Shown one piece after another: positions 2,353-20,431 of a stretch of 64,000 nt of DNA. The position numbers and the translations under genes are program-made. Within the stretch, counting starts at the first letter, position 1. Each line of letters opens with the position of its first letter. Source of the stretch: Acutalibacteraceae bacterium (GTDB lineage: Bacteria > Bacillota > Clostridia > Oscillospirales > Acutalibacteraceae). A model generated the notes under the pieces. It was not told the DNA's origin, made no database searches, and was given only the letters and a program-made list of their open reading frames with translations. The stretch is from positions 90 through 64,089 of the forward strand of contig JAZOUK010000005.1 of assembly GCA_045658105.1 (NCBI GenBank), written 5' to 3'.

Positions 2353-3054
<702 letters not shown>

Positions 3055-3127
3055 TCAAGAAAACATTAACAAAATGGGAACGATTATAAAAAACTAATGT
3101 AAAAAAGTAAAATCACCGAATTAAATG

Positions 3128-3157
3128 GAACAGGCACGGAAAATTCCGTGCCTGTTC
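3128..3157 (-). terminator. hairpin after the 397-aa gene
   Basis: GAACAGGCACGGAAAATTCCGTGCCTGTTC, a perfect palindrome 13 nt downstream of the stop at 3170. Confidence 0.5.
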
Positions 3158-3169
3158 GTTCAATACTGC

Positions 3170-4363
3170 TTATATACCATTTATTTCTTTTTGATAACGT
3201 TGATTAGCCACCTCAACAAGAAATGTCAGTGTTGAAACTTCAGTTTCAGTAAGTGGTTTATTGTGTTGAACTATCAAATAAGAATCAAGTGCTCTAAAAA
3301 CACTAATATACATACCTTGCCAACCACAATTACATTTGATATCACCCTGTAAATAATTATCAAACTGGTTTGAACGATATTCTCTTATGTGCACTTCGGG
3401 TTTATAACTTGTTGAATATCCTAATATGCCATAATCCCAATAGAAGTGAGTTGCCTTTATATCGCTCTTTAAAATACAAAACATAAGTGCTTGTGATAAA
3501 TCTAGTTGGGTTATTTGTTTTTCTATTTCATCCAATTGTTCTACATTAAAATGGTTATATCGTAACACTGCATAGGTAGCTTCGTTTAGCTCCTCCATAT
3601 TTAAAAAGTAATCTTTTAGCGCAGTATAATGATCGGTGGTTTTTATCTTTTCAATGATATCTAAAGATAAATATTTCTCAAATATACCTATAGGAATTGG
3701 TTCTGTCATTGGATCAAACGGTATATGTGAATCAACTTCATAATCCGAAAGAGCCAAGGACAATGGATCTAACGCAATATTCATAATCAACATCATTCCA
3801 ATGGCGTATTTCAAAAAAGAAAGAAAAAGATTTGTTCGCCCCTCTTGGTCTGTGGAATTTGAAATATTGTTAGAAACATAAAAGGTATCAAATCCCTGTT
3901 TATGTATATATTTATTTGCTTTTTTCAGCAATTCATCATATTGTTCAAAGAATTCTGGGATAACAGTTTTAATCTCATTATATGCATCATTTTGGCGAAT
4001 AAGTAAATCCTTAACTGCTTTATCCGACGGAAATCTACCTTTTTCTTTCCAAAGTTCATACTTATCGGCATCTACTGCAGACAAAAGCATATTGTTCATA
4101 TTCTCTATTGACTGTCTTAAAGAATAGAACGCGCAATCGAAATAACCATCCTCGTATAGGAAAAAAGCGTGTTTTAACAGTTCTACCGATTCACTGAAAA
4201 ACATATTACAAAACATCTCGTTAAGATTCCCAGTGGTGGGTATCAATGCTCGGAGTGTGCTCAATAATTCATCATGTTCAGGCAACTGCCTTTTCACCAA
4301 AAGACTGTGATCTTGTTCACATAATAATTCTTTCCATTCGGATTTATTCATTAAATTCACCAC
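3170..4363 (-). CDS. hypothetical protein, 397 aa (possible HEPN-like helical N-terminal domain, unverified)
   Basis: Long ORF with its own terminator. No motif I can assign firmly. VELLKHAFFLYEDGYFDCAFYSLRQSIENMNN ... KKANKYIHKQG only loosely resembles HEPN helices. Start is GTG 4363 or ATG 4351. Confidence 0.55.
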   Translation of the reverse strand: MVNLMNKSEWKELLCEQDHSLLVKRQLPEHDELLSTLRALIPTTGNLNEMFCNMFFSESVELLKHAFFLYEDGYFDCAFYSLRQSIENMNNMLLSAVDADKYELWKEKGRFPSDKAVKDLLIRQNDAYNEIKTVIPEFFEQYDELLKKANKYIHKQGFDTFYVSNNISNSTDQEGRTNLFLSFLKYAIGMMLIMNIALDPLSLALSDYEVDSHIPFDPMTEPIPIGIFEKYLSLDIIEKIKTTDHYTALKDYFLNMEELNEATYAVLRYNHFNVEQLDEIEKQITQLDLSQALMFCILKSDIKATHFYWDYGILGYSTSYKPEVHIREYRSNQFDNYLQGDIKCNCGWQGMYISVFRALDSYLIVQHNKPLTETEVSTLTFLVEVANQRYQKEINGI

Positions 4364-4556: not shown

Positions 4557-4702
4557 ATTTTATAATTAATACTATTAACAATTAATTGCTTTTTTGAGCC
4601 TGTAAATTTGCGCGAATTTTATTGATGATATACGTGTCAAAATCAGGATGATTGAAAACTTTCGTGAGACTTAAGCATTATTGCAAGTTCGTTTATGCTA
4701 TA

Positions 4703-5203
4703 TCATCCCCACCAATACAAAGCTTTGTTGTCAATAGCATATCGCCGTTCTACGATTCTTCTTTTCTCATGGCAGAGCATATCATCTGACATATCAACGC
4801 AAAAAAATCTAAATTCAACGTAATTTTGTGCAATCATATCTCTGTATTTATCGATATATCTAGGATTTCTTTTCCATGATTTTGTTCTCAAGGAACTAAC
4901 ATATGTACACATTTTGCATTTATGTATGTGGAACTTTGCACTGTCGTTCCCAAACCGCCTTCTAGCCAAATATTGTTTATTGCAGTTCACGCATATATTA
5001 TCATCTGGGGTGTTTAATATATGAATTGCACTTAGGATTTCACTATATATATTTATAGTTTCAGCAACTTCTAAACATCTCCAGTTTTCATTGTTTTTTC
5101 AACCGTACAACGCCCAAACTCCTGGTTTTTCATAAAACCTCCTATTTATCTCTGTACACTTTAAAAATTTGACTTTTGATCCAATAACAATATTTTTCTC
5201 CAT
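4703..5203 (-). pseudogene. Cys-rich ORF interrupted by one in-frame TGA (5099-5101)
   Basis: ATG 5203 (AAGGA RBS) gives MEKNIVIGSKVKFLKCTEINRRFYEKPGVWALYG, then TGA. The same frame continues KNNENWRCLEVAETINIYSEI...CVNCNKQ...HKCKMC... to the stop at 4703. The track lists only the distal 95 aa. Confidence 0.5.
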
Positions 5204-5260
5204 ATAGTTTTCCTTGGTTTATTTAAATGGTTTATATCATTTTATCACAAATCTAAGCTA

Positions 5261-5291
5261 AAAGAAAGTCACACCTTGCAATTCGCATAGG
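5261..5291 (-). terminator. putative terminator after the HEPN-like gene
   Basis: CCTTGC-aattc-GCAtAGG stem followed (minus strand) by CTTTCTTT. It shares a TTGCAA..GCA.AGGC core with the hairpins at 7397 and 9661. Confidence 0.35.
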
Positions 5292-5331
5292 CGAGGTTTT
5301 ACTTATGAATTAACTTTATCACAGTGATTTA

Positions 5332-6294
5332 TCATTTTAGAAACGATTCATCTGCAACCATTGTAAATAACAAAAACAGAAGAGCTGTAATATGTATTGA
5401 ATAATAATTCATGTATGTGAAATTACAATGGGCCAAATTATTTCTTAAATTTAAGTTTGAAGCATCAAAGAGAAGAGTAACAATTTTAACAAAACTATCA
5501 TCTGCTATATCTGTAAATAATGAACTACGAATAAATGGTGTCAGTGTGAATTTGTTGCAAAGAAGGTTCTTAATATTTGAATCATTCGAAATAATATTAT
5601 ATTTTCTTAATAATGCATATTGCATATCGGAAGTTGCTTGAACACTATCAAAATAAGCTGTAGTTGTTCTATGAGAAATCATTTCATATTGATGTTGTAA
5701 AAAATCTAATAAATCATTTTCTTGTGATGTCAATACAATGTTTCCGGCAGAGATTTCTTGCTTTAATGAGTTAAGGTACTGCTTTGCATATATTCTTTTC
5801 GTATGTTCTTTAATATCCTTTTCAAACAAGGTTGCGAGAATTAAAGTTGCTCCATAGGCTGGAGATAAACCATTGTTCTTACTATTAATTAATTCATTGT
5901 ATGCATATATAAACATTTCGTTGGTACTGATTGGCCCACTAACTCCATCCTCAACGCGAGCTATACGATTTCCTTCCTTATCAAAAACATTTAAAAATAC
6001 TCCACCAAGAATTATAGCGAGATTATAAAAATAAATCATATGTGATTGTAAATCGGTAATATTCGCACCTTGTATGTTGGGCAACTGTGAATAATCAAAA
6101 GTGGCATTTTTTATATCATAATCGCACATATCTATTATTTCACCTAAAAACTTAAGCTTCTCGTCTTTGCTAGAGTAGTTTTGATAAATTGAAAAATGGT
6201 TTATCTTATCATTTATATAGGCATCACGTTCTGTTATATTAATCAAAGCCAACCCTTGTGCCAAATCAAATTTGAAATTTTTGTTAAAAAACAT
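5332..6294 (-). CDS. HEPN-type protein with C-terminal RNxxxH motif (DUF4209-like)
   Basis: C-terminal ...LNLRNNLAHCNF (R 5443-5445, H 5428-5430) fits the Rx4-6H HEPN signature and the RNxxxH(G) signature described for DUF4209. It starts 27 nt after the AbiH-like stop, with a GAGGAAGAAGGA RBS. Confidence 0.6.
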   Translation of the reverse strand: MFFNKNFKFDLAQGLALINITERDAYINDKINHFSIYQNYSSKDEKLKFLGEIIDMCDYDIKNATFDYSQLPNIQGANITDLQSHMIYFYNLAIILGGVFLNVFDKEGNRIARVEDGVSGPISTNEMFIYAYNELINSKNNGLSPAYGATLILATLFEKDIKEHTKRIYAKQYLNSLKQEISAGNIVLTSQENDLLDFLQHQYEMISHRTTTAYFDSVQATSDMQYALLRKYNIISNDSNIKNLLCNKFTLTPFIRSSLFTDIADDSFVKIVTLLFDASNLNLRNNLAHCNFTYMNYYSIHITALLFLLFTMVADESFLK

Positions 6295-6321
6295 ATTAGT
6301 TCCTTCTTCCTCTAATTATTA

Positions 6322-7341
6322 TTAAAAACCGAATACCTCTGTGTCTTGCCTTAATATTATATTCCATCCATTGCTTTGTACATATTCTAACTTTCTTCTA
6401 TGATCTTGTTCATCGTGATAATAACATATTATTTCTTTGGCTTTTATAGCAACAAACACACTCCAGTCAGCCTGACCTAAAGAATGACCTATTATATGTA
6501 CCTCATCAAATTCCTCATTGGCAAGGATCTGGATTATGGTTTTTCGATAATCAAGAAATTCTTTGCTTTTCATTTTCAGCCATTTATATAATTCTTCTTC
6601 ATTGTCTTGTGTTCTTCTTACCACATCATCAAAGAATCTTTTAATAGCGGCTCTTTCAATCAAATTATTTTCCATATCATACTCATAGTATTTTAGTCTT
6701 TCGGCCAATACATCTTTTGGTCTTCCGGTTGCTTTACTTGAGGGATATTCCGTATGAACAGCAGTAGTATCCAAACGCTCAAAAGTATCACAACCAATGA
6801 CAATTTCATCATTAATATTTCCGTGAATATGTTCTACGTTATGAAAACCATAAAGCAGTTCTATGACATTTGTATAATTGAAATTTATAACCCTTGAAGC
6901 CGAATCAAAATGCTCTTTCAAAGTTTGCATTGAGGGAAATTTAGGAATTTTAGAATCGCAGTATAGATCACGAAGATAAGACAAAAAATCTGCCTCAAAA
7001 CTAACTAACAGTAAAACTATTTTTGAGATTACTTCAATTTCTTCTTTAAATGCCTCTGACCTATAATCATAATATCCGACCTCACCATTTTGATCTGTGC
7101 CGTAGGTGTCAATTATTTCTTCAACGATTTCATCCACTTCTACTTCAGTGCCGATTTCATCGAGTTTGTCTAATATCAGTTCTTTAAATCGATCTTCAAC
7201 ACTATACCAACAATTATTTTTGTTTTTGAAAACCGAGTATTTATCAGCATAGTTAGTAGAATATTTAACAAAATCATCAAAAGCTGTATTAAGCCCATGT
7301 GCTTTATCAAAGCCATTGCCTGTAATGATTAGTTTTTTCAA
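6322..7341 (-). CDS. AbiH-family abortive-infection-like protein
   Basis: MKKLIITGNGFDKAHGLNTAFDDF at the N-terminus, INFNYTNVIELL, VEHIHGNI, and VHIIGHSLGQADWSVF. This is the AbiH motif series as I recall it. Confidence 0.7.
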   Translation of the reverse strand: MKKLIITGNGFDKAHGLNTAFDDFVKYSTNYADKYSVFKNKNNCWYSVEDRFKELILDKLDEIGTEVEVDEIVEEIIDTYGTDQNGEVGYYDYRSEAFKEEIEVISKIVLLLVSFEADFLSYLRDLYCDSKIPKFPSMQTLKEHFDSASRVINFNYTNVIELLYGFHNVEHIHGNINDEIVIGCDTFERLDTTAVHTEYPSSKATGRPKDVLAERLKYYEYDMENNLIERAAIKRFFDDVVRRTQDNEEELYKWLKMKSKEFLDYRKTIIQILANEEFDEVHIIGHSLGQADWSVFVAIKAKEIICYYHDEQDHRRKLEYVQSNGWNIILRQDTEVFGF

Positions 7342-7385
7342 ACGATCTTCACCTCAATTCGACAATATTATATCATAAACTTATG

Positions 7386-7425
7386 TAAAAAGAAATCCCC
7401 GCTTGCAAGATTTGCAGAGGCGGGG
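7386..7425 (-). terminator. rho-independent terminator after the NACHT gene
   Basis: CCCCGC..GCAA-gat-TTGC..GCGGGG, followed on the minus strand by ATTTCTTTTT. Confidence 0.6.
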
Positions 7426-7473
7426 CAGTAAACATTGCATAATGTGAAGATCAATTTACCAAAAACAAAAAAT

Positions 7474-9585
7474 TTACCTTCTGTTACTAAGTTTAAATTG
7501 TTTGTTCAAAGATAAAATCTCTTTCTTAATTAAAAACATACACTCAAGTCGCTTTTGGCTCGCACCGTTAAAGGTAATGAAGCACTTGGAGACGATTCTT
7601 TTTTCTTTAAAAGAAAGACGTTTACTTCTGTTGTACATAAATGTATAGATTGTGGCTAAATCAAACAGTCGGAAAAAGTACTGCTTTTTTGTTTTTCCGT
7701 CCATTTTTGAAATGTCTGTTGGTAATTTTTTAGAAAGACGTGTAATTCGTTTGTCAAAAGCGTTATGGCAAGATATGCATTTATCATCATCCTTAAAATT
7801 GTATATAGTTTTACCAATAACATCACCATAGAATATAAGTGTATGTGATCTATTAGCAAGATCATAGTTGGCATTATATGTGTTGTTTAGGAATGGTAGC
7901 ATACGTTCAACATAATCTAATTCTATATTCTCTCCTGCTAAAAAGGACGAACTAATTGCACAGCAACGCTTTAATACAACACTATAATAGTCTAAATCTG
8001 AGGTTTGTTTTATATTAGAATCATTCCAATAAATAAACTCCAAAAAATCAACAACAGCGGGATTTTGCAATCCTAAACGTCCAAGACGAAAAACTATCTC
8101 GTACTTAAGAGAGAAAAACTCCATAGGATTCAAAACCGGAAACTCACATATAAATTTATTGTTAGGGAATTCAAAATATTTTTTGAGTTCTTCTTTTGTG
8201 TTTTCATCCAAGGTGTAATAATAGATACTGCAAAGTTTTTCGAAAAAATATTCCTTTATAGTATTATCATTCGTATTTATTGCATCTGTAATGAAATCCG
8301 CATAGTCATTCGAGTAGTTTTGGTAAAAGATAGAAAGTGCTTTTTTGTCAATTTGATTATTCCTCGTTTGAAGCAAATAGTGTTTTGCCACAAAATACTC
8401 AAAAAATGTCTCATGGGTAAAGGTGAGTTTGTCACCGGAAGTCTTTTTGAGTATTGTTGAAATGAAATGTATTTCAACAGGAAGGCTAAATTGCTTTTTG
8501 TCACTCGAAAAGAAAGCAAAAACTGCTTCTGCGATTTCTTCTCCTATTTTATCCAAATCAACTTTTGTAATAGGATCGTTATTTCTTCTGCAGTAGGTTT
8601 TAATAAGACACGAGATAAAATTGTCATAAAAGTCAAACTTATTGTTTGTATTAATTGAAACACTTGGGTGCGTCTGCAGTTTCATGTAGACAAACAGTTT
8701 CATTAAAAGCGGACTATTAATATTTTTTAACCAAGACGTATCATTCAAGATTTGATTTTTAATATCCGAAATTTTATTGTAAGAATCATACTGTATGTTG
8801 TTTAAAGTCTTCAAAAGATTCGCAGCATAATTATTTAACATTTTAGAGGACCAACTCATTATTTGAACATTTCTTTTTTTGATTCTCATAAAAGAATTGT
8901 TGCGGAGAATATATTTTTGCGCAAAGTCCGGACGCGATGTTATTTTTAAATCAACTTTTTTTGCAACTATAATAATACAATCAACAAATTCGGACAGCCG
9001 TTTTGCACGGCTTTCGCCGATTTCATCAACACCATCTAAGTACAAAATAACCTGTTTATATTTAGTAGCCATTAATTTGTTTTTTAGTTCATCTTGCATA
9101 GTTGTGTCGTCAAGCAAGGATATTAACTCAACAGAGTTAAAAAATAAATGTACTTTTTTCCCTATGTTTTTTTTAGAAAAATTCTTGATGAAATCATATT
9201 TTAATAAAGTGGATTTTCCACAGCCCGCAGGACCAGTCAAAATATATGCTTTATCCAATAAAGATTTGACTTTAAAAGCTTTTCTATCGCTAGAAATAGG
9301 CATGTTTTTATAAAAGAAATACTTTTGTTCACTAGGCTCATCGAAAAAAGTTGGTTCCCTTTCAATTTGTTCCTTTGTTCGCAAACCCATATTCTCAAAA
9401 TACTGCCTTGCATCTTTTGCTTCTTGCCCCAGTGAGCGATGCTCAAAAATAAATTTAAATACAGCCCATAAACCACCAACAATTATTGTTACTAATACTG
9501 CGACAGACGCAAAATCCCCAAACCAGTCTTTGTTTTCTACGAAAAAATGTTTTACTGCGTCCCATATGGCTTTCAAACGTTCCAT
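7474..9585 (-). CDS. membrane-anchored NACHT/STAND NTPase
   Basis: Walker A is ILTGPAGCGKSTLL and Walker B is VILYLDGVDEIGE. Also present: KITSRPDF and FTHETFFEYFVAKHYL (NACHT winged-helix-like). The N-terminal hydrophobic helix is FGDFASVAVLVTIIVGGLWAVFKFIF. I chose the ATG at 9585 (AGGAGAA RBS); the track starts at 9651. Confidence 0.8.
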   Translation of the reverse strand: MERLKAIWDAVKHFFVENKDWFGDFASVAVLVTIIVGGLWAVFKFIFEHRSLGQEAKDARQYFENMGLRTKEQIEREPTFFDEPSEQKYFFYKNMPISSDRKAFKVKSLLDKAYILTGPAGCGKSTLLKYDFIKNFSKKNIGKKVHLFFNSVELISLLDDTTMQDELKNKLMATKYKQVILYLDGVDEIGESRAKRLSEFVDCIIIVAKKVDLKITSRPDFAQKYILRNNSFMRIKKRNVQIMSWSSKMLNNYAANLLKTLNNIQYDSYNKISDIKNQILNDTSWLKNINSPLLMKLFVYMKLQTHPSVSINTNNKFDFYDNFISCLIKTYCRRNNDPITKVDLDKIGEEIAEAVFAFFSSDKKQFSLPVEIHFISTILKKTSGDKLTFTHETFFEYFVAKHYLLQTRNNQIDKKALSIFYQNYSNDYADFITDAINTNDNTIKEYFFEKLCSIYYYTLDENTKEELKKYFEFPNNKFICEFPVLNPMEFFSLKYEIVFRLGRLGLQNPAVVDFLEFIYWNDSNIKQTSDLDYYSVVLKRCCAISSSFLAGENIELDYVERMLPFLNNTYNANYDLANRSHTLIFYGDVIGKTIYNFKDDDKCISCHNAFDKRITRLSKKLPTDISKMDGKTKKQYFFRLFDLATIYTFMYNRSKRLSFKEKRIVSKCFITFNGASQKRLECMFLIKKEILSLNKQFKLSNRR

Positions 9586-9660
9586 TTCTTTTCTCCTGTT
9601 AAGCAATTTAATTTCTATAATCAATATAACATAAATGATGCGATTAATCAATTATAAGAA

Positions 9661-9742: not shown

Positions 9743-10456
9743 TTACTCATCCGTATATTCATGCGGGCGTTCTTTATAATCTTTAACTTTGTATTCGCCG
9801 ATGGTGTCGTATTTGCTTGCTTTTGTTTCGGTGGGTGTATTGGTTTCATTATCTTCTCCGAGGATTGCATCGAAGAAGATGCGTTCAAGGTATTCGTATT
9901 TTGAATAAATACCTTGGGATGCCCAAACGAGAGCGTTGCGAACGTAGGCTGAGTTTGTTTTAAATAACTCGTGTTCAACTTCAAATCCCATTGATTTTGC
10001 AAGAAGTACAGCAAACACTATAACAGTTCTTGTATTACCTTCACGGAAGGGGTGGGTTTGCCAAATACTTGCGATAATACGAACAAGCTTGAAAACGATA
10101 TCCTTATCGTTATCGCCGGTTCTTTTGAGCTTGGCGATTTCTTTCATTGTTTCGTTTAGTTGTTTTTTAATTTCTTTAGGATAAGCATAACGAACGGTAT
10201 CACCGCCGAGAACGTCTTCGTATTTTACCATTTGAATGGTACGAAAATCTCCCGCCCAATCAAATATTTGGCCGAAAATATTGCGGTGGATATCCTGCAA
10301 AGTTTCGGTGTTAAACTTATCGTACTTATAATCATAAATTGCTGCCATAGAAAGACCGGTAATATCAGCCTCTGCTTTGCGCAGTAATTCCGAATCTTTT
10401 ATATCTGCTAAATTTTTAAGGATGTCAACATCATCATATAAATAAGGGTCACGCAT
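9743..10456 (-). CDS. fic: Fic/DOC family protein (putative AMPylase toxin)
   Basis: Fic motif HPFREGNTRTV (10025-10054). The GGAGGT RBS lies inside the 3' end of the upstream gene. Confidence 0.9.
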   Translation of the reverse strand: MRDPYLYDDVDILKNLADIKDSELLRKAEADITGLSMAAIYDYKYDKFNTETLQDIHRNIFGQIFDWAGDFRTIQMVKYEDVLGGDTVRYAYPKEIKKQLNETMKEIAKLKRTGDNDKDIVFKLVRIIASIWQTHPFREGNTRTVIVFAVLLAKSMGFEVEHELFKTNSAYVRNALVWASQGIYSKYEYLERIFFDAILGEDNETNTPTETKASKYDTIGEYKVKDYKERPHEYTDE

Positions 10457-11297: not shown

Positions 11298-11789
11298 TCA
11301 AGCGGTTTCGTCAGCTGCTCCGCCCTTGCCATTCCACTTTGTTGGTTCTGCTTCACCGAAACGTTGATAGTGAACTATTTCTCGCTGTCTCAAAAATTTT
11401 AGTGGGTCGAGTATATCAGGATCATCAATTAGCCTTAATAAGTTATCATAAGTCACTCTTGCTTTTTGCTCTGCTGCTAAATCTTCATGCAAATCGGCAA
11501 GAATGTCTCCTTTTGCCTGAATATATTCTGCTCTCCACGGAATACCCGATGCCGCAACTGGAAATACTGCATTTGTATGATCCACAAAATATTTATCAAA
11601 ACCACTTTCCTCAATCTGTTTTTCTGTTAGATTACGAGTTAACTGATGAACCATTGCACTTACCATTTCCATATGTGCAAGTTCTTCTGTACCTATATCT
11701 GTTAGCATTCCTTTAACCTCATTAAAAGGTTGTGAATACCTTTGGGTCAAGTAACGCATTGAAGCACCTAACTCGCCGTCCGGTCCGCC
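11298..11789 (-). pseudogene. cotJC: cotJC 3' segment (Mn-catalase-family spore coat protein) separated from its 5' end by the prophage
   Basis: The in-frame sequence upstream of the track ORF reads GGPDGELGASMRYLTQRYSQPF..GTEELAHMEMV.., typical of CotJC from about residue 30. The reading frame is cut by phage sequence at the CCGCC core (11785-11789). Confidence 0.85.
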
Positions 11790-14110: not shown

Positions 14111-14145
14111 CCGCCCCACTCCGAAAGGAATGAGGCGGATTTTTT
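14111..14145. terminator. bidirectional terminator between convergent genes
   Basis: CCGCCCCACTCC-gaaa-GGAATGAGGCGG flanked by AAAAAATA and ATTTTTT. Confidence 0.6.
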
Positions 14146-17100
14146 AGTTTTTAACCTGATTAATATAATACTGTATCAGTTTATCATAATCGTCTAAAAA
14201 CCGCATTTCTGCTTTAGATAAGAAATATTCCTGCGCCAATTCCTCCAAATCCTGCTCACGCATCTTAGAGTAAACAGATTTTGTAAGTATCGGGTCACCG
14301 TTTTTCTTTTCACCAACCATTGCGGATAAGGTGTCGTAATCATATTTACGTTCCGACTTTACCTTATCATAAGCGAACTGATATATTTTACTTATCGCAG
14401 CAACTTTTTCATCATCAGAAAGCTTCGTATATTCCTGACTATCGAAAAGCTGACCAAGCAATTCTGCGCTGTATTTTCCTGTATTGCGCTGAAAATCTGC
14501 TTTTTCTTCGGGGGTAAATATCATCTTGTTACCCTTAACTGTGAAATAATTCGGGGCTGTTCGTGGTATGACAGAATTTTCACCTGTTGATTTGTAAAGC
14601 TTATATATCTCCCCGACAACCTCGCCTGAGCTTTTAGGATACGTGTTCCACGGTGAAGCAAATGCTTCCCATTCGTCAAGATATTGCGTGTTCTTAACTT
14701 CTTCACCCAAAACATTAACCTGATTAGGTAATGTAGTTCTGAGCCCTGGTATTTTCGCTATGACTTTATTTATAGCTGATTTAAAACTATTTGTATTGTC
14801 ATAAGACGTTCTGCGGTATTCGTCAAAATAGCTTGCAGTTTGAGACCAACGTTGTGGAACAAATGCTGCCGGCTCTGCCAAAGCTGCAGTTGTTAAGGCT
14901 TCTACTATATCCTCCGAAGAAAATAAATCATATAAACTTTGTAAAAACGACTGTTGCGAAAAAGCTTTACCACCTGCCTTAATCGCCTCTACTATTGCGT
15001 TCGCTACATCGCCATCAGGATTTTCTTCTTGACTTTCCATAAAATCCGCTACAACTGCCAAAATCGAACCGAATGGTTGTGCCCAATCATAAGTAACATT
15101 CACACCGAAAAATTCTATCGAATATGGCGGAATACCCATAATGTACTTTTCATAATTTGAAGCATCTTTATCGTCATCATCATCGCCCGAAAGTTTGACA
15201 ACGCCTAACGCCGCTCCTATAGCAACAAGCGCATAAACTGTTGTTCCTGTTATAGCATTACTCATACTGCGTACAAATTCTCTTTGTAACTGAGGATTAA
15301 ATTTGCCTTTATCTATAGCATTTTTAAGCTTTTTAGCGTTAACTCCTGCCGATACAAAGCCAACAGGGGAGAAGCTTCCAATCGCTTTAGCTATGTTTGA
15401 AGGTGTTTTTATAAACTTCATAACAAAGTCGCCGAGTCCGTAAGAAGTTCCGGGTATGTGCACCATATCGTTGAGCGCCGACTTAATTTTACTCGCGGAC
15501 CTTGTAAGCTTATTATCGTCTTGCCAAGTTCTTTGTAATGCTTCCTGCTTAGCTACTTCTATCATTTCGGGTGTAGGTATTTCCAAATTATTGAGCCTCA
15601 GTTGGTTATTCAATGAATTTGTCATCCACATTTCAAAGAAAGGTCTGTCTCCTACTTCTAAGCAGAAAGAAGTAAAATTATCCATCTTATTAAGAGCCTT
15701 TGCAATAGCATCTAATTGTTTGCCCAACTTTCCGTTGTGATGCTCGTTAAAATTCTTACCTGTCGAAGCATTAAGCTCAAAACGGTTTAAATCCTCTTGC
15801 TTTGTGCGTATACCTCTTTTGAAATCGTCCCAAGATTCGTAAACACCTTTTCCAAAGCTCTTTGTGCTTTCTTTTAGACGTTCTCTGCCATCCTTTGTAA
15901 ATACGTGACCGTACATACCTGTAGACCTGTATTCAGTCTTTTTTGATACTGCTTTATCAATAGCAGTTCCGAAAAAGTCAGATGCAATAAACAACGGTGT
16001 CATACCAACGTTACCGTTTATGTTGCGGAGTATTGTTTTTAAATTTAAAAGCATATTTGACCGTTGAAGTGCCCTGATAGATTGTCCGGCTTCGGGCGGA
16101 ATCTTATCCTGAATAATATTGCATATTTTTCCAAGTGCTATAGCTTTAGGTCTTGTATTATCGTCAAATAATGCAGCTTGCAGGGTATAACGGCGAATTA
16201 ATTCAATGTCATCCTCTGTGAGCTTGAGTTTATCAGCATTTTTATCTATCCATTTTTGGGTTTTGATTTCTGCCAATTCCTCAAAAGCTTTATCCAATTG
16301 TTTTTGGGCATACAATACCATTGCATTCGGTTCAAGTCTTCCGAGTATCGAGAAAATCTGCACCTGCTGACCGCCTGCTGTTCCAAAGGCTCTTACTCTT
16401 TCGGCCGCGGCGGCAGCACTTTCATAATCACCCACACGCTGATACCTGTCCATAAGGATAAATCCTACAGCCGTATCAATAAGGCTTGCGTGTTCAGGGT
16501 CTTTGTTCCACCATTGATTTACGTAGCTTTGTCCTCCCTCGTCAAGCTCCTTTGCCGCTTTCTCAAGAGTTTCCTTGTTTGTGACCGATTTATATTTTTG
16601 AATAAAGCTATCGTCTCGCACTTCGTCCTTAAAACGTTCGTCAAAAATATCCGATTCTAAAAGGCTGCCGTAAAATTTGCTTTCCTTATCACCGTCCGAT
16701 TCGCCCTTTTTGCGTGAGTGGTGAGGTGTGGTGTTTGCATCTTCTTCGGTTAAATTCGCTATCTCTGCGGGGTTGAGAGGCTTTTGTTTTTTAACCATAT
16801 CTAAATACTCTTGCCTTGTAATCTCGCCGTTCTCGTACTGTTCAAGCAAACTTTCTGCAGAATTATCGACAGGAATGGAATAATCGTCCGTTTCCTGCAT
16901 AGAATTTTTCTTGACAGTAGGCTCAATATCGTCTATAATGTCAGTAGAAGATGTTTCGGCTCTACGGTCTTGTGCCGTATGCGAGGCATCTTCTATTTCT
17001 ATTTCTTGAAGTCCTACAATATCATACAACAATGCAACTCCTGATTTTGTTGTTCCCACAATAATGTCCGCAGAATATCCTCTATCATCCACCTTGAAAT

Positions 17101-20100
17101 CAACAATTCCCCTTGCGAACTCAACAAAATTATCACTGCGCTGATGTTTGATTTCCTCGCCAATATAATTCCTTGCGGCTTTTAACAACTCATCTGCATT
17201 ATTAAATGCATTAATTTTATCGGTATATTTCTGTTTTTCATTTGCTAAAAGGTATTGAGCATCTTTTGACCTTTGCCACTCTCTGGCAGTCCTACTGTTA
17301 ACACCGATTTTTTGTCCTGATACATTTACAAAATCATTAAATTTGTTTTTGATAATATTAGACAAGGTTGTAGCAATGTCTTTTGCGCTGTCGGTATCAG
17401 AAATTGTTTTGTTTTCCACTTGAACAAATTTATGTCCATCAGTGGATTTTTTTATACTATAACTAACCTCACCATCTGAATTGGAGTTTTCCTTAACATT
17501 CACAGCCTCGTTATAAACCTTAATAAACTCCTTTTCGATTCGATTGATTTCATAGTTTACCTTAGCGTTTTCGGAAAACTTAGATTTTAAATAGTCGATT
17601 ATATTCTTAATCACATCAAGAAACGACTTTTTATGCTTCGGTTCTAATGCGTTCATAAGCTCTGCGTTAATAGCGCGTTCACCACCAAATAAACGTCCGC
17701 CCACAAAATCCGCAAGTATTTCATCATAACACTTTGTTTCGTCAAAGCCCCTTACCTCGCTGTAGGTATCCATAATTTCGGCTTTAAACTCGTTTATAGA
17801 TGAATAACCCTTGCTGTGAAGCCATATAGAAAACGCTTTGCTGTTAAATGCCATATCCATAAAATCGGTATAAGCAGGTAAAGCTCTCTTTAAATAGTGC
17901 GTGATTTCGTGCTTGAAAATGAAGTATACAGGTCTCTTGGCGTAAAAATTAATATGAATGTTTCCGTCCTTGTCTATATAACCGTCAGGGATTTTTTTCT
18001 TGCCCTTAAACTTATCAAGCTCATAAAAATCCTCATATATTACCTTTCTTCCTAACTTCTCACCGATTTCCCGAATTTCCTCCTGCTGAGCCTTGTTTAA
18101 ATGCTTACCCTTTACAGTATCAATATCACCGAACGAGGCTATATCATCCACCCCACCCGAAGAATTTTGGAAATTATTTTCGGTGCTGTCGGGTATATTA
18201 TTATTGACACCGCTGCCATTCTGTGGTATAGTGGGGTTGAAAGATGTATCTGATGAGACATCGTTGGACTTGCGATTTTTCAAATCGTCTCCAACACCGT
18301 CCAAGGATACATCTTTTTTTATACCCCAATTATAAATTTGACTTTCTCCTTGTTTTGCAAGGTCTCTTACAGCAATTCTTACACCTACGGTTTCTTCGCC
18401 AATCTGTACGGGTGTATAAAAATAATTCCATCTGTATACATTAGGGTCGCCATCATAATCGGGAGTGGAATATAAATAACAGGAATTTTTAAATATTTCG
18501 TCAGTGGAATAAAGCATATTCGCTTTTTCTTGTGTTATTTTTTCCAAAACCTCATTTATTCCTGTATTATACAATGTCGCTTCTAAGACTTTTCCGTTAA
18601 CCTCAAACTCAAAACCTTGGTTTTTAAAGCCATTAAGAAATTGTCTAAGGTTATTTTTGAGCGTGTCCATTGCTTCTTTAAGTATTGGTGTACGTTCTTT
18701 CTTTTTCATTGAACGTAAATCAGGATATGATTCTCCAACCTTTTCCTGCGTTTCCTTAGAAACTTTAACAACATTCCCCTCTGCAACCATACGATTATGA
18801 GTTTCATTCATTATTGCTGTTTTAGTATCATTGTCAGAGTAATCAACGTTCCGCCATATTTCGCTATTACGATTTGCAAATTCCTCTAAAGTTATGCGCT
18901 CTTTATTAAGACTATTTTTATAATTACTGTAACCTACTGCCGAACCTAACGAACCAAAACCAAAACCCATAAGCGCGCCCGAAGCTCCCGCCTCTAATAT
19001 TTGCAGTCCTAATTTTTGGGCTGCTTTTTTCTTTGCGGTTTTTTCGTCAATTTTGGGGTCTTGCATATATTCCTCAACAAGCATAGCATACTGCGAAATA
19101 CCACCGTTTGTAGCATAGTCATACAAAACATTTGCGACCTCGGTGGCGGTTTCCTCGGAGGCATTTGTCAACATAGATTTGCCTAAGTTTTTGGCAAAAT
19201 CTTTAAGTCCTGTAACCGTTCCTTCCTGCATCGTCTTAAGCTGACCTATTGAAAACTTTTCGAAAAAGCCTTCAAAAGCACCTGCTGCTATACCACCCCA
19301 AAATGCTTGTTCGTTCGTACCGCCACGTTCCAGTATATCATTGGTACTATTTGCCGCTGCAGATAGACCCAAAGTAACCGCACCGACAGTCCCCGTAGGA
19401 GCAACAACAAGCGAATCCACACCCGACATAGTGGTATTATACACAAAGTCGAAAGCATCCCATTTGCCTATTTCCCAATCAACCTTTTCGGGCAATGCCC
19501 CTCTTAGAATTGATGTTGACATCGCTGCTTTATTGGTTTTTAGATTGCCTGTAATTGCATAATCAACGGAATTAAGAATATGTTCTCCCGAAGCAGCTAA
19601 ATTCGTCGCAACAGAAGCTGCGGCACTTAAATATGGATGCTCTTTCGCAAACTTAGAATTATCTTTTGCGATTTTCTTTGTTTCTCTTGCATCCAAATCT
19701 TCTTCAAGAAATTTCAAAAACTCTGTTGCTTCCTTTGCACCCTGTTCCGCATAAATATAGTTATAAATTCCTATTTCCCTATCAGTCATAAAACTGTATT
19801 TATGAAAAAGAGGGTATGCGTTACTGTTCTTACCTTTAGTTTCTATGTAAGTCTGAGCATCGTTAATATTATTTATATACTCATATGTCCAGTCAACCCC
19901 CAAGACAAACGAACCGTATTTAGCTTTCTTGGGATTTGTACTTACAACCTCACCGTCAGGAAAAGCACTATAATATCTCACCTTTTTGAAATCTTCATAT
20001 TCTTTTTTCTTGGCTTCATATTTCTCTTTATAAGGTTGTACTTTTTTATTGTTACTCCAACCAAGTTCAGCCAAATCCTTGGTAATCGGGTCAATATTAA

Positions 20101-20431
20101 ATCTTTCTTGTGCCGATTTATAAGCCTTTTCGGCCTCGTTCATTTCTTGCTTTAATTGTTTTTCGGCAACATACCCCTCATCATAAGTCTTTGACGGAAT
20201 AGTTGTCCTGAGCTCGTCCGCCTTAATAAGCTGTCGCATATTTGCAGCAGGATTTTTCAGGGCGGTATTCGCGATTGAGGTGACATTGTTTTTTAGTTGC
20301 TTTATTGCTTGCGATTGACTTCCTATATATTCGCCTGTGGTAATAGAAACACCGGATTGAGTATTAACCCTTGAATTTGATTGCTGCGCTTTAGGTGCGC
20401 TAATAGATGCGCCTTTTACAATTTCAACCAT
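14144..20431 (-). CDS. 2095-aa virion-associated multidomain (polyvalent-type / tape-measure-like) protein with zincin HExxH motif
   Basis: Uninterrupted 6.3-kb ORF at the end of the late operon. Gly/Ala-rich hydrophobic segments (GAVTLGLSAAANS..GGIAAGAFEGFFEKF..GASGALMGFGFGSLGSAVG). HEITH at 17897-17911 in FIFKHEITHYLKR. Confidence 0.75.
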   Translation of the reverse strand: MVEIVKGASISAPKAQQSNSRVNTQSGVSITTGEYIGSQSQAIKQLKNNVTSIANTALKNPAANMRQLIKADELRTTIPSKTYDEGYVAEKQLKQEMNEAEKAYKSAQERFNIDPITKDLAELGWSNNKKVQPYKEKYEAKKKEYEDFKKVRYYSAFPDGEVVSTNPKKAKYGSFVLGVDWTYEYINNINDAQTYIETKGKNSNAYPLFHKYSFMTDREIGIYNYIYAEQGAKEATEFLKFLEEDLDARETKKIAKDNSKFAKEHPYLSAAASVATNLAASGEHILNSVDYAITGNLKTNKAAMSTSILRGALPEKVDWEIGKWDAFDFVYNTTMSGVDSLVVAPTGTVGAVTLGLSAAANSTNDILERGGTNEQAFWGGIAAGAFEGFFEKFSIGQLKTMQEGTVTGLKDFAKNLGKSMLTNASEETATEVANVLYDYATNGGISQYAMLVEEYMQDPKIDEKTAKKKAAQKLGLQILEAGASGALMGFGFGSLGSAVGYSNYKNSLNKERITLEEFANRNSEIWRNVDYSDNDTKTAIMNETHNRMVAEGNVVKVSKETQEKVGESYPDLRSMKKKERTPILKEAMDTLKNNLRQFLNGFKNQGFEFEVNGKVLEATLYNTGINEVLEKITQEKANMLYSTDEIFKNSCYLYSTPDYDGDPNVYRWNYFYTPVQIGEETVGVRIAVRDLAKQGESQIYNWGIKKDVSLDGVGDDLKNRKSNDVSSDTSFNPTIPQNGSGVNNNIPDSTENNFQNSSGGVDDIASFGDIDTVKGKHLNKAQQEEIREIGEKLGRKVIYEDFYELDKFKGKKKIPDGYIDKDGNIHINFYAKRPVYFIFKHEITHYLKRALPAYTDFMDMAFNSKAFSIWLHSKGYSSINEFKAEIMDTYSEVRGFDETKCYDEILADFVGGRLFGGERAINAELMNALEPKHKKSFLDVIKNIIDYLKSKFSENAKVNYEINRIEKEFIKVYNEAVNVKENSNSDGEVSYSIKKSTDGHKFVQVENKTISDTDSAKDIATTLSNIIKNKFNDFVNVSGQKIGVNSRTAREWQRSKDAQYLLANEKQKYTDKINAFNNADELLKAARNYIGEEIKHQRSDNFVEFARGIVDFKVDDRGYSADIIVGTTKSGVALLYDIVGLQEIEIEDASHTAQDRRAETSSTDIIDDIEPTVKKNSMQETDDYSIPVDNSAESLLEQYENGEITRQEYLDMVKKQKPLNPAEIANLTEEDANTTPHHSRKKGESDGDKESKFYGSLLESDIFDERFKDEVRDDSFIQKYKSVTNKETLEKAAKELDEGGQSYVNQWWNKDPEHASLIDTAVGFILMDRYQRVGDYESAAAAAERVRAFGTAGGQQVQIFSILGRLEPNAMVLYAQKQLDKAFEELAEIKTQKWIDKNADKLKLTEDDIELIRRYTLQAALFDDNTRPKAIALGKICNIIQDKIPPEAGQSIRALQRSNMLLNLKTILRNINGNVGMTPLFIASDFFGTAIDKAVSKKTEYRSTGMYGHVFTKDGRERLKESTKSFGKGVYESWDDFKRGIRTKQEDLNRFELNASTGKNFNEHHNGKLGKQLDAIAKALNKMDNFTSFCLEVGDRPFFEMWMTNSLNNQLRLNNLEIPTPEMIEVAKQEALQRTWQDDNKLTRSASKIKSALNDMVHIPGTSYGLGDFVMKFIKTPSNIAKAIGSFSPVGFVSAGVNAKKLKNAIDKGKFNPQLQREFVRSMSNAITGTTVYALVAIGAALGVVKLSGDDDDDKDASNYEKYIMGIPPYSIEFFGVNVTYDWAQPFGSILAVVADFMESQEENPDGDVANAIVEAIKAGGKAFSQQSFLQSLYDLFSSEDIVEALTTAALAEPAAFVPQRWSQTASYFDEYRRTSYDNTNSFKSAINKVIAKIPGLRTTLPNQVNVLGEEVKNTQYLDEWEAFASPWNTYPKSSGEVVGEIYKLYKSTGENSVIPRTAPNYFTVKGNKMIFTPEEKADFQRNTGKYSAELLGQLFDSQEYTKLSDDEKVAAISKIYQFAYDKVKSERKYDYDTLSAMVGEKKNGDPILTKSVYSKMREQDLEELAQEYFLSKAEMRFLDDYDKLIQYYINQVKN

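Follow-up and report, generated by a model that had tools for sequence, protein, structure and literature searches.

An abiH gene and a DUF4209/HEPN-type gene stacked in a clostridial defence island appear to be independent cassettes

We analysed a 64,000-nucleotide stretch of contig JAZOUK010000005.1 from an Acutalibacteraceae bacterium, referred to here as the window, and focused on two adjacent minus-strand genes. The first is an abiH gene (6322-7341) encoding a 339-aa protein from a TTG start codon, with the ribosome-binding site (RBS) GAGGTG 8 nt upstream. The second, hereafter the partner gene, is an open reading frame (ORF) for a 320-aa DUF4209-like protein of HEPN type (5332-6294, ATG start). 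An earlier note on this DNA had placed both ORFs correctly, including the short gap with its RBS, and had taken the pair for a self-contained two-gene system not yet described. The 27-nt minus-strand spacer (6295-6321) carries the purine-rich RBS of the partner gene, AGAGGAAGAAGGAA, at 6300-6313, and it also marks where the two cassettes described below meet. Both ORFs are genuine genes rather than chance ORFs, because each has many full-length homologues. No stable hairpin was found within the spacer (folding free energy, dG, -1.5 kcal/mol; z +0.42), and since the two genes are separated by a 27-nt gap lacking a terminator, they are probably co-transcribed and thus co-expressed.

The signals that flank the pair differ in strength. 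Upstream, the intrinsic terminator of a STAND/NACHT-like NTPase gene (7387-7425, minus strand; hairpin 7397-7425) consists of a CCCCGC...GCGGGG stem followed by UUUCUUUUU; it folds with a dG of -16.6 kcal/mol (z -2.84), only 1 of 200 shuffled sequences being equally stable, and it sets the 5′ boundary of the AbiH transcription unit. Between this terminator and abiH lie promoter-like elements on the minus strand (7349-7389), comprising TTTACA at 7384-7389, an extended -10-like element, TGATATAAT, at 7367-7375, and the AbiH RBS GAGGTGA at 7349-7355. A consensus promoter scan returned a match at 7389-7362, the remaining leader elements being read from the sequence by eye, and this region is predicted to act as the promoter. 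Downstream of the partner gene, a hairpin (5272-5293) followed by a U-rich tract, CUUUCUUUU, occupies 5260-5293 on the minus strand and might serve as a leaky terminator. Its z-score was -1.76, with 9 of 200 shuffles equally stable, and a terminator pattern scan detected none on the minus strand 3′ of the partner gene. Of the two flanking terminators proposed in the earlier note, the upstream one is thus real and the downstream one is a weak hairpin.

We searched all ORFs of 59 fetched loci, each carrying a relative of either gene, by hmmsearch with profiles of both families. The partner family was found in 19 of the 59 loci and AbiH in 41, and the two overlapped in a single locus, L019. A blastn comparison aligned L019 with the window from 7379 to 4601 at 90.8% nucleotide identity, so that L019 represents this element in a related strain and not an independent instance; at the protein level, the window and L019 share 93% identity for AbiH and 93-94% for the partner. 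Apart from this copy of the same element, the two families essentially did not co-occur. The partner family was present without AbiH in approximately 13 independent contexts, and AbiH without the partner in approximately 17.

To locate the boundaries of the shared segments, window positions 4601-7600 were compared with the fetched loci by blastn. The partner-only locus L001 aligned from 6320 to 5326, a segment that contains the RBS, the ORF and 6 nt past the stop codon, and nothing further. Conversely, five AbiH-only loci aligned over the other side of the junction: L020 from 7425 to 6332, L056 from 7379 to 6359, L055 from 7340 to 6369, L023 from 7340 to 6359, and L057 from 7340 to 6392. Because homology to L001 begins at 6320 and homology to the AbiH-only loci ends at 6332-6392, the cassette seam coincides with the abiH stop codon (6322-6324). 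The promoter/leader region travels with abiH, given that the homology of L020 and L056 runs from 7425 and 7379, respectively, and the HEPN-like gene moves together with its RBS, as a cassette that lacks a promoter. Visual comparison of the junction sequences of the window, L019, L020, L023, L055, L024 and L057 revealed no shared motif resembling a recombination site. As judged by sequence relationships, these loci establish abiH and the partner gene as evolutionarily independent cassettes. We consider it likely that the window holds two defence genes stacked in one transcription unit, each probably autonomous, which were joined recently in one lineage and do not form an obligate two-component system.

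The self-contained system proposed in the earlier note did not survive these comparisons. If AbiH and the HEPN-type protein acted jointly, for example with an NAD-derived product or an ADP-ribosylation step activating the RNase, then the tight same-strand spacing, the terminator before the pair with a weak one after it, and the retention of the pair in L019 would all be accounted for. We nevertheless regard an obligate two-gene system as highly improbable: just one of the 59 loci, near-identical to the window, carries both families; the alignments break off at the AbiH stop codon; close AbiH relatives are followed by unrelated genes or by none; and the Lactococcus AbiH works as a single gene (PMC13064643). 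Two other interpretations of the pair were considered and rejected. A fusion or frameshift artefact is incompatible with the separate RBS of each ORF and with the identical 27-nt gap in L019. A toxin-antitoxin pair does not fit two proteins that are both large and enzyme-like, neither of which resembles a small antitoxin and each of which is found without the other.

What follows abiH varies among its close relatives. In L020-22 (AbiH 78% identity), the next gene encodes a 186-aa protein with an RNSYAH motif (L020 1193-1753), followed by DUF6994; further on, at L020 2649-4085, lies a gene for a 478-aa protein with an RNNYAH motif and a weak HEPN_Apea match. In L055 (75%), a RES-domain protein (2882-3751; Pfam 1.3e-8) follows after a 27-nt gap. 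L023 (66%) carries a DUF4238 protein in this position (approximately 6045-6932; Pfam 8.7e-9), and Rst_DUF4238 is a catalogued defence system (10.1101/2024.10.26.620412). The DUF4238 gene of L023 lacks a canonical start codon ahead of its HHLIPQTY motif, and on the other side of the AbiH homologue in the same locus, a Fic gene directly precedes it. No downstream operon gene was present in L024-27 (54%) or in L057-59 (66%), and a clear terminator is present in L057-59, in L057 directly after the stop codon. That these close homologues (L024-27, L057-59) stand alone with a terminator of their own is the support obtained here for AbiH acting as a single gene. A further observation concerns the homologue P0053 (89% identity), which is near-identical to the window AbiH except for its last ~40 residues; these resemble other members of the clade, a pattern that would fit recombination close to the 3′ end of abiH, the site at which the downstream cassettes differ.

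The product of the first gene is an ordinary AbiH. The 339-aa protein matched the Pfam family AbiH (PF14253) at E = 1.8e-30, with 107.3 bits against a cut-off of 30.9 and a match spanning aa 4-301 and model positions 1-247 of 260, and it matched the PADLOC AbiH model at 3.5e-17. All motifs named in the earlier note are present, namely GNGFDKAHGL at aa 8-17, NFNYTN at 153-158, HIHG at 171-174 and IIGHSLG at 283-289. Across 27 homologues with 44-93% identity, the residues G8, N9, G10, D12 and H15, F154, N155, Y156, T157 and N158, G285, H286, S287 and L288, and D292 were invariant, and H171, I172, H173 and G174 were nearly so (at least 90%). AbiH was cloned as a single gene conferring phage resistance in L. 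lactis (Prevots 1996, as cited in PMC13064643), and lactococcal AbiH has been reported on integrative and conjugative elements (PMC13064643).

AbiH is a predicted Sir2-superfamily enzyme (PMC3506569, PMC13064643), a prediction that dates from 2012. The AlphaFold2 model of the window protein was of high confidence (predicted local distance difference test score, pLDDT, 92.3), and its top full-length Foldseek matches in the PDB were Sir2 proteins, weak and not significant (E = 0.12-0.95, template-modelling (TM) score ~0.3). These non-significant matches included the SIR2 subunit of SIR2/HerA (8wld_Q; E = 0.12, TM 0.30) and E. coli CobB (E = 0.45-0.95). Alignment of the AbiH profile with CobB by hhalign, using a CobB sequence checked beforehand against PDB 6rxj, paired only the first motif (GNGFD with GAGIS) and was weak (E = 0.11). 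Because neither the Foldseek nor the hhalign matches were significant, the Sir2 relationship is taken from the literature, and AbiH is predicted to act in abortive infection as a Sir2-like effector that consumes NAD+. The AbiH clade also carries an acidic helical insert (aa 48-94; window 7060-7200), which matches S100B EF-hand proteins weakly (E = 0.045); its loop, G-T-D-Q-N-G-E-V-G-Y-Y-D, resembles a calcium-binding loop but has G at position 1.

For the partner protein, Pfam DUF4209 (PF13910) was the sole Pfam match, covering aa 237-310 at E = 8e-4 and, with 19.8 bits against a cut-off of 22.3, falling just under the threshold; no PADLOC or NCBIfam model matched. At the family level the assignment was clear, as DUF4209 was recovered in 25 of 29 close homologues (E <= 0.01) and 27 of 63 wider members (E <= 0.001), with a best value of 1.3e-10. 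Membership of the DUF4209 family is therefore well supported at this level, though the window sequence on its own remains sub-threshold. The LRNNLAH motif to which the earlier note had drawn attention occupies aa 283-289 within a conserved LNLRNNLAH, and it is conserved across the family. Its Rx4H core, R284-N-N-L-A-H289, is the predicted catalytic site and is encoded at 5428-5445 on the minus strand. An Ex3K motif, E158-K-D-I-K162, corresponds to that in HEPN helix 2; it lies in a predicted helix (147-182), and its codons occupy 5809-5823 on the same strand. In the partner family alignment, N282, L283, N285 and H289 were invariant and R284 near-invariant. E158 was invariant and K162 conserved to at least 90% in alignment A1, and E158 was conserved to at least 90% in alignment A3. 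An Rx4H motif with a polar residue after the R, together with an upstream Ex3[KR], is the signature of catalytically active HEPN RNases, and DUF4209 (the C6orf70 family) is a HEPN family found in restriction-modification (R-M)-related operons (Anantharaman et al. 2013, PMC3710099).

The AlphaFold2 model of the partner protein was all-helical and confident (pLDDT 92; predicted TM-score, pTM, 0.90), with the motif in a short helix (283-288) ahead of the last long helix (300-314). Since no structural match was significant, the HEPN fold is assigned from sequence evidence, and a profile search of PDB sequences with the partner protein likewise gave 0 matches at E <= 10. One could accordingly regard the protein as a non-catalytic helical regulator or specificity factor that binds RNA or protein and uses RNxxxH to do so, in the manner of some HEPN-like domains. 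The missing structural match in the PDB and BFVD and the sub-threshold Pfam score would suit such a role, as would the homologue P0022, in which S replaces R284 and whose gene still sits between the mod and res genes of a type III R-M operon (the mod-X-res arrangement). We consider a non-nuclease quite improbable, because R284, N285, H289 and E158 each reach at least 90% conservation in the 63-sequence alignment, whose mean column identity is 19%, a pattern tied to active HEPN RNases (PMC3710099); G97, F276 and N282 reached the same level in that alignment. The partner would most likely work as a metal-independent endoRNase, relying on E158, R284, N285 and H289, whose activity poisons the infected cell.

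The partner family is rare. It comprises 51 clusters at 90% identity; at 50% identity, 139 clusters were counted in a set of 1.84 billion representatives, and 185,579 species genomes yielded five loci, at least four of them in metagenome-assembled genomes of Clostridia. A scan of viral contigs detected no relatives and hence no sign of phage carriage, an exact-sequence look-up of the partner protein returned nothing on record, and a literature search found DUF4209 in bacteria only in the 2013 survey and no paper pairing DUF4209 with AbiH.

The most recurrent context of the partner family is the mod-X-res arrangement. Such relatives (41-49% identity), flanked by a type III mod gene (N6_N4_Mtase) on one side and a res gene (ResIII + RE_endonuc) on the other at intergenic distances of 0-18 nt, are found at L005 6001-6969, L006 6001-6969, L007 1559-2527, L014 5001-5960, L018 4989-5957 and L013 2142-3110. 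These represent four distinct lineages, namely L005/L018, L006/L007, L014, and L013, the last with a split mod gene. L014 additionally carries Gabija-like genes (OLD-TOPRIM ATPase and UvrD helicase) directly upstream. Elsewhere, the partner relative was solitary (L003, 64% identity), stood beside a Gabija-like OLD-ATPase, a UvrD helicase and an integrase (L008, 65%), or followed an SMC-like ATPase (L011). No trace of AbiH was detected in the 1.4 kb upstream of the relatives in L001 and L002 (76%). At L001 6974-8917, approximately 10 nt after the HEPN-like gene, lies a gene for a 647-aa protein whose C-terminal part contains two HTH_28/HTH_Tnp_1 domains and whose N-terminal region matched nothing else; the same pair occurs in L002. 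In the window, the partner gene follows abiH rather than an R-M gene and is not embedded in an R-M operon.

These placements bring to mind a PrrC-like, second-line arrangement, in which the HEPN RNase would be held inactive by the first-line protein of its operon (type III Mod/Res elsewhere, AbiH here) and released when a phage inhibitor attacks that protein; the window pair would then form a functional two-layer unit, though a young one. Such a guard would explain why a cassette without its own promoter is inserted at gaps of 0-27 nt within other defence operons, and PMC3710099 proposes this logic for at least 16 R-M-linked HEPN clades, with PrrC-EcoprrI as the paradigm. The equal divergence of AbiH and the partner between the window and L019 also fits. 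However, one HEPN protein would have to recognise unrelated partners (Mod/Res, AbiH, and none in L003), the HEPN gene also occurs alone or next to unrelated genes, and the partner lacks the ABC-ATPase regulatory domain of PrrC/RloC. This guard model, drawn by analogy with PrrC, is the main rival reading, and we hold it to be possible but unlikely. A wider conjecture, and in our estimation a rather unlikely one, is that the HEPN gene is a portable, promoter-less plug-in RNase on unrelated defence operons, a generic guard that fires once a phage has disabled the host system, and that, separately, the 3′ end of the AbiH clade is a swap site for toxin cassettes (HEPN, RES, DUF4238). If this were true, the AbiH-linked copy would be the first such guard of a non-R-M, Sir2-type defence.

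Under the reading that we favour, two autonomous defence genes stacked in one operon, AbiH, once triggered by infection, would consume NAD+ or ADP-ribosylate a target. The HEPN-type cassette would insert into other defence operons, either internally or at their 3′ end; here it would have landed right after the abiH stop codon, where it may borrow the abiH promoter. Each gene would be expected to function without the other. Several points weigh against this reading. The partner homologues nearest to the window (78-94% identity) lie on contigs of 1.2-3.2 kb whose flanks fall outside the comparison, so that sampling is limited. The two genes, being probably co-expressed, could cooperate functionally in the window lineage. 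Furthermore, the repeated tight insertion into defence operons of the mod-X-res type is a hint that the HEPN protein could rely on the operon that hosts it, or act as a monitor of that operon, and so be less than fully autonomous. Finally, Foldseek comparison of the partner model with the PDB and BFVD gave no match at E < 0.5, with Csm6 HEPN proteins appearing at E = 4-6.

Around the pair, defence-type genes follow one another on the same strand, a setting best explained as a crowded defence island within a mobile element of a gut Firmicute with low GC content, which is ~30% throughout. On the minus strand, downstream of the pair, are genes for a TIR/SEFIR-domain protein (1517-2206), a serine resolvase (2353-3042) and a 397-aa DUF5677-like protein (3170-4363). 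Between these and the pair, and outside the pair itself, lies a disrupted small gene with its own RBS (4703-5203, minus strand; ORFs of 34 and 95 aa), whose counterpart in L019 is an intact Cys-rich ORF of 166 aa (2178-2678) with no family match. Upstream, again on the minus strand, are the 725-aa STAND/NACHT-like NTPase (7474-9651), a Fic protein (9743-10456; PADLOC PDC-S04, 9.4e-50) and a 2095-aa polyvalent protein with an LPD3 (large polyvalent protein-associated) domain (14144-20431). The LPD3 domain in this 2095-aa ORF suggests that the island resides on a conjugative, phage-like or otherwise mobile element. A 153-aa ORF at 11298-11759 (minus strand) matches positions 40-190 of a 284-position Mn-catalase model and is probably a truncated gene remnant. 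Near-identity DNA searches of 5200-7500 and 1-25000 against plasmid and phage collections returned no match, and an Rfam scan of the whole window returned nothing.

AbiH itself, its Sir2-superfamily prediction and the status of DUF4209 as an R-M-linked HEPN family were already known. What is new, and modest, is a compact subfamily of ~320-aa DUF4209 proteins without a PADLOC model. The mod-X-res placement and the variable toxin slot are useful observations within established concepts of defence-island modularity. In practical terms, a false lead is removed: the AbiH-HEPN pair should stay out of catalogues as a new two-gene defence system. At the same time, a rare and experimentally untouched DUF4209/HEPN subfamily is flagged, whose recurrent mod-X-res placement makes it a good candidate for the second-line RNase idea of 2013. 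The differing toxin-type genes in the slot behind close AbiH relatives are in turn informative on how defence islands are assembled.

Compared with known systems, the window AbiH resembles the L. lactis AbiH in its near-full profile coverage, in carrying all family-invariant motifs, and in its setting on a mobile element or in a defence island. It differs in belonging to a gut-Clostridia clade, in having an acidic helical insert of ~50 aa (aa 48-94), and in being followed by another defence-type gene in the same operon. With the Sir2-based effectors (ThsA, DSR1/2, SIR2-HerA and SIR2-pAgo), it shares the predicted Sir2-superfamily membership, and its top Foldseek match, although not significant, was the SIR2 subunit of SIR2/HerA; unlike those systems, the window has no HerA, pAgo, SLOG or other known Sir2 partner.

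For the partner, a parallel exists with PrrC-EcoprrI, a HEPN anticodon nuclease in a type Ic R-M operon, in that relatives of the window gene are inserted within R-M operons (type III mod-X-res). In contrast to PrrC, the partner has no ABC-ATPase domain, and Pfam, NCBIfam and PADLOC detected no P-loop or ABC match in it; the R-M type also differs, neither a tRNA target nor an activating phage peptide is known for the partner, and the window copy lies outside an R-M operon. Further counterparts are the bacterial DUF4209/C6orf70 HEPN proteins (PMC3710099), with which the partner shares the C-terminal DUF4209 match (sub-threshold in the window protein), an Rx4H motif with N after the R, the upstream Ex3K, and relatives embedded in R-M operons. 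It differs from them as part of a small, compact subfamily of ~320 aa, with an uncharacterised N-terminal two thirds and no PADLOC model, whose window copy is attached to abiH rather than to an R-M system.

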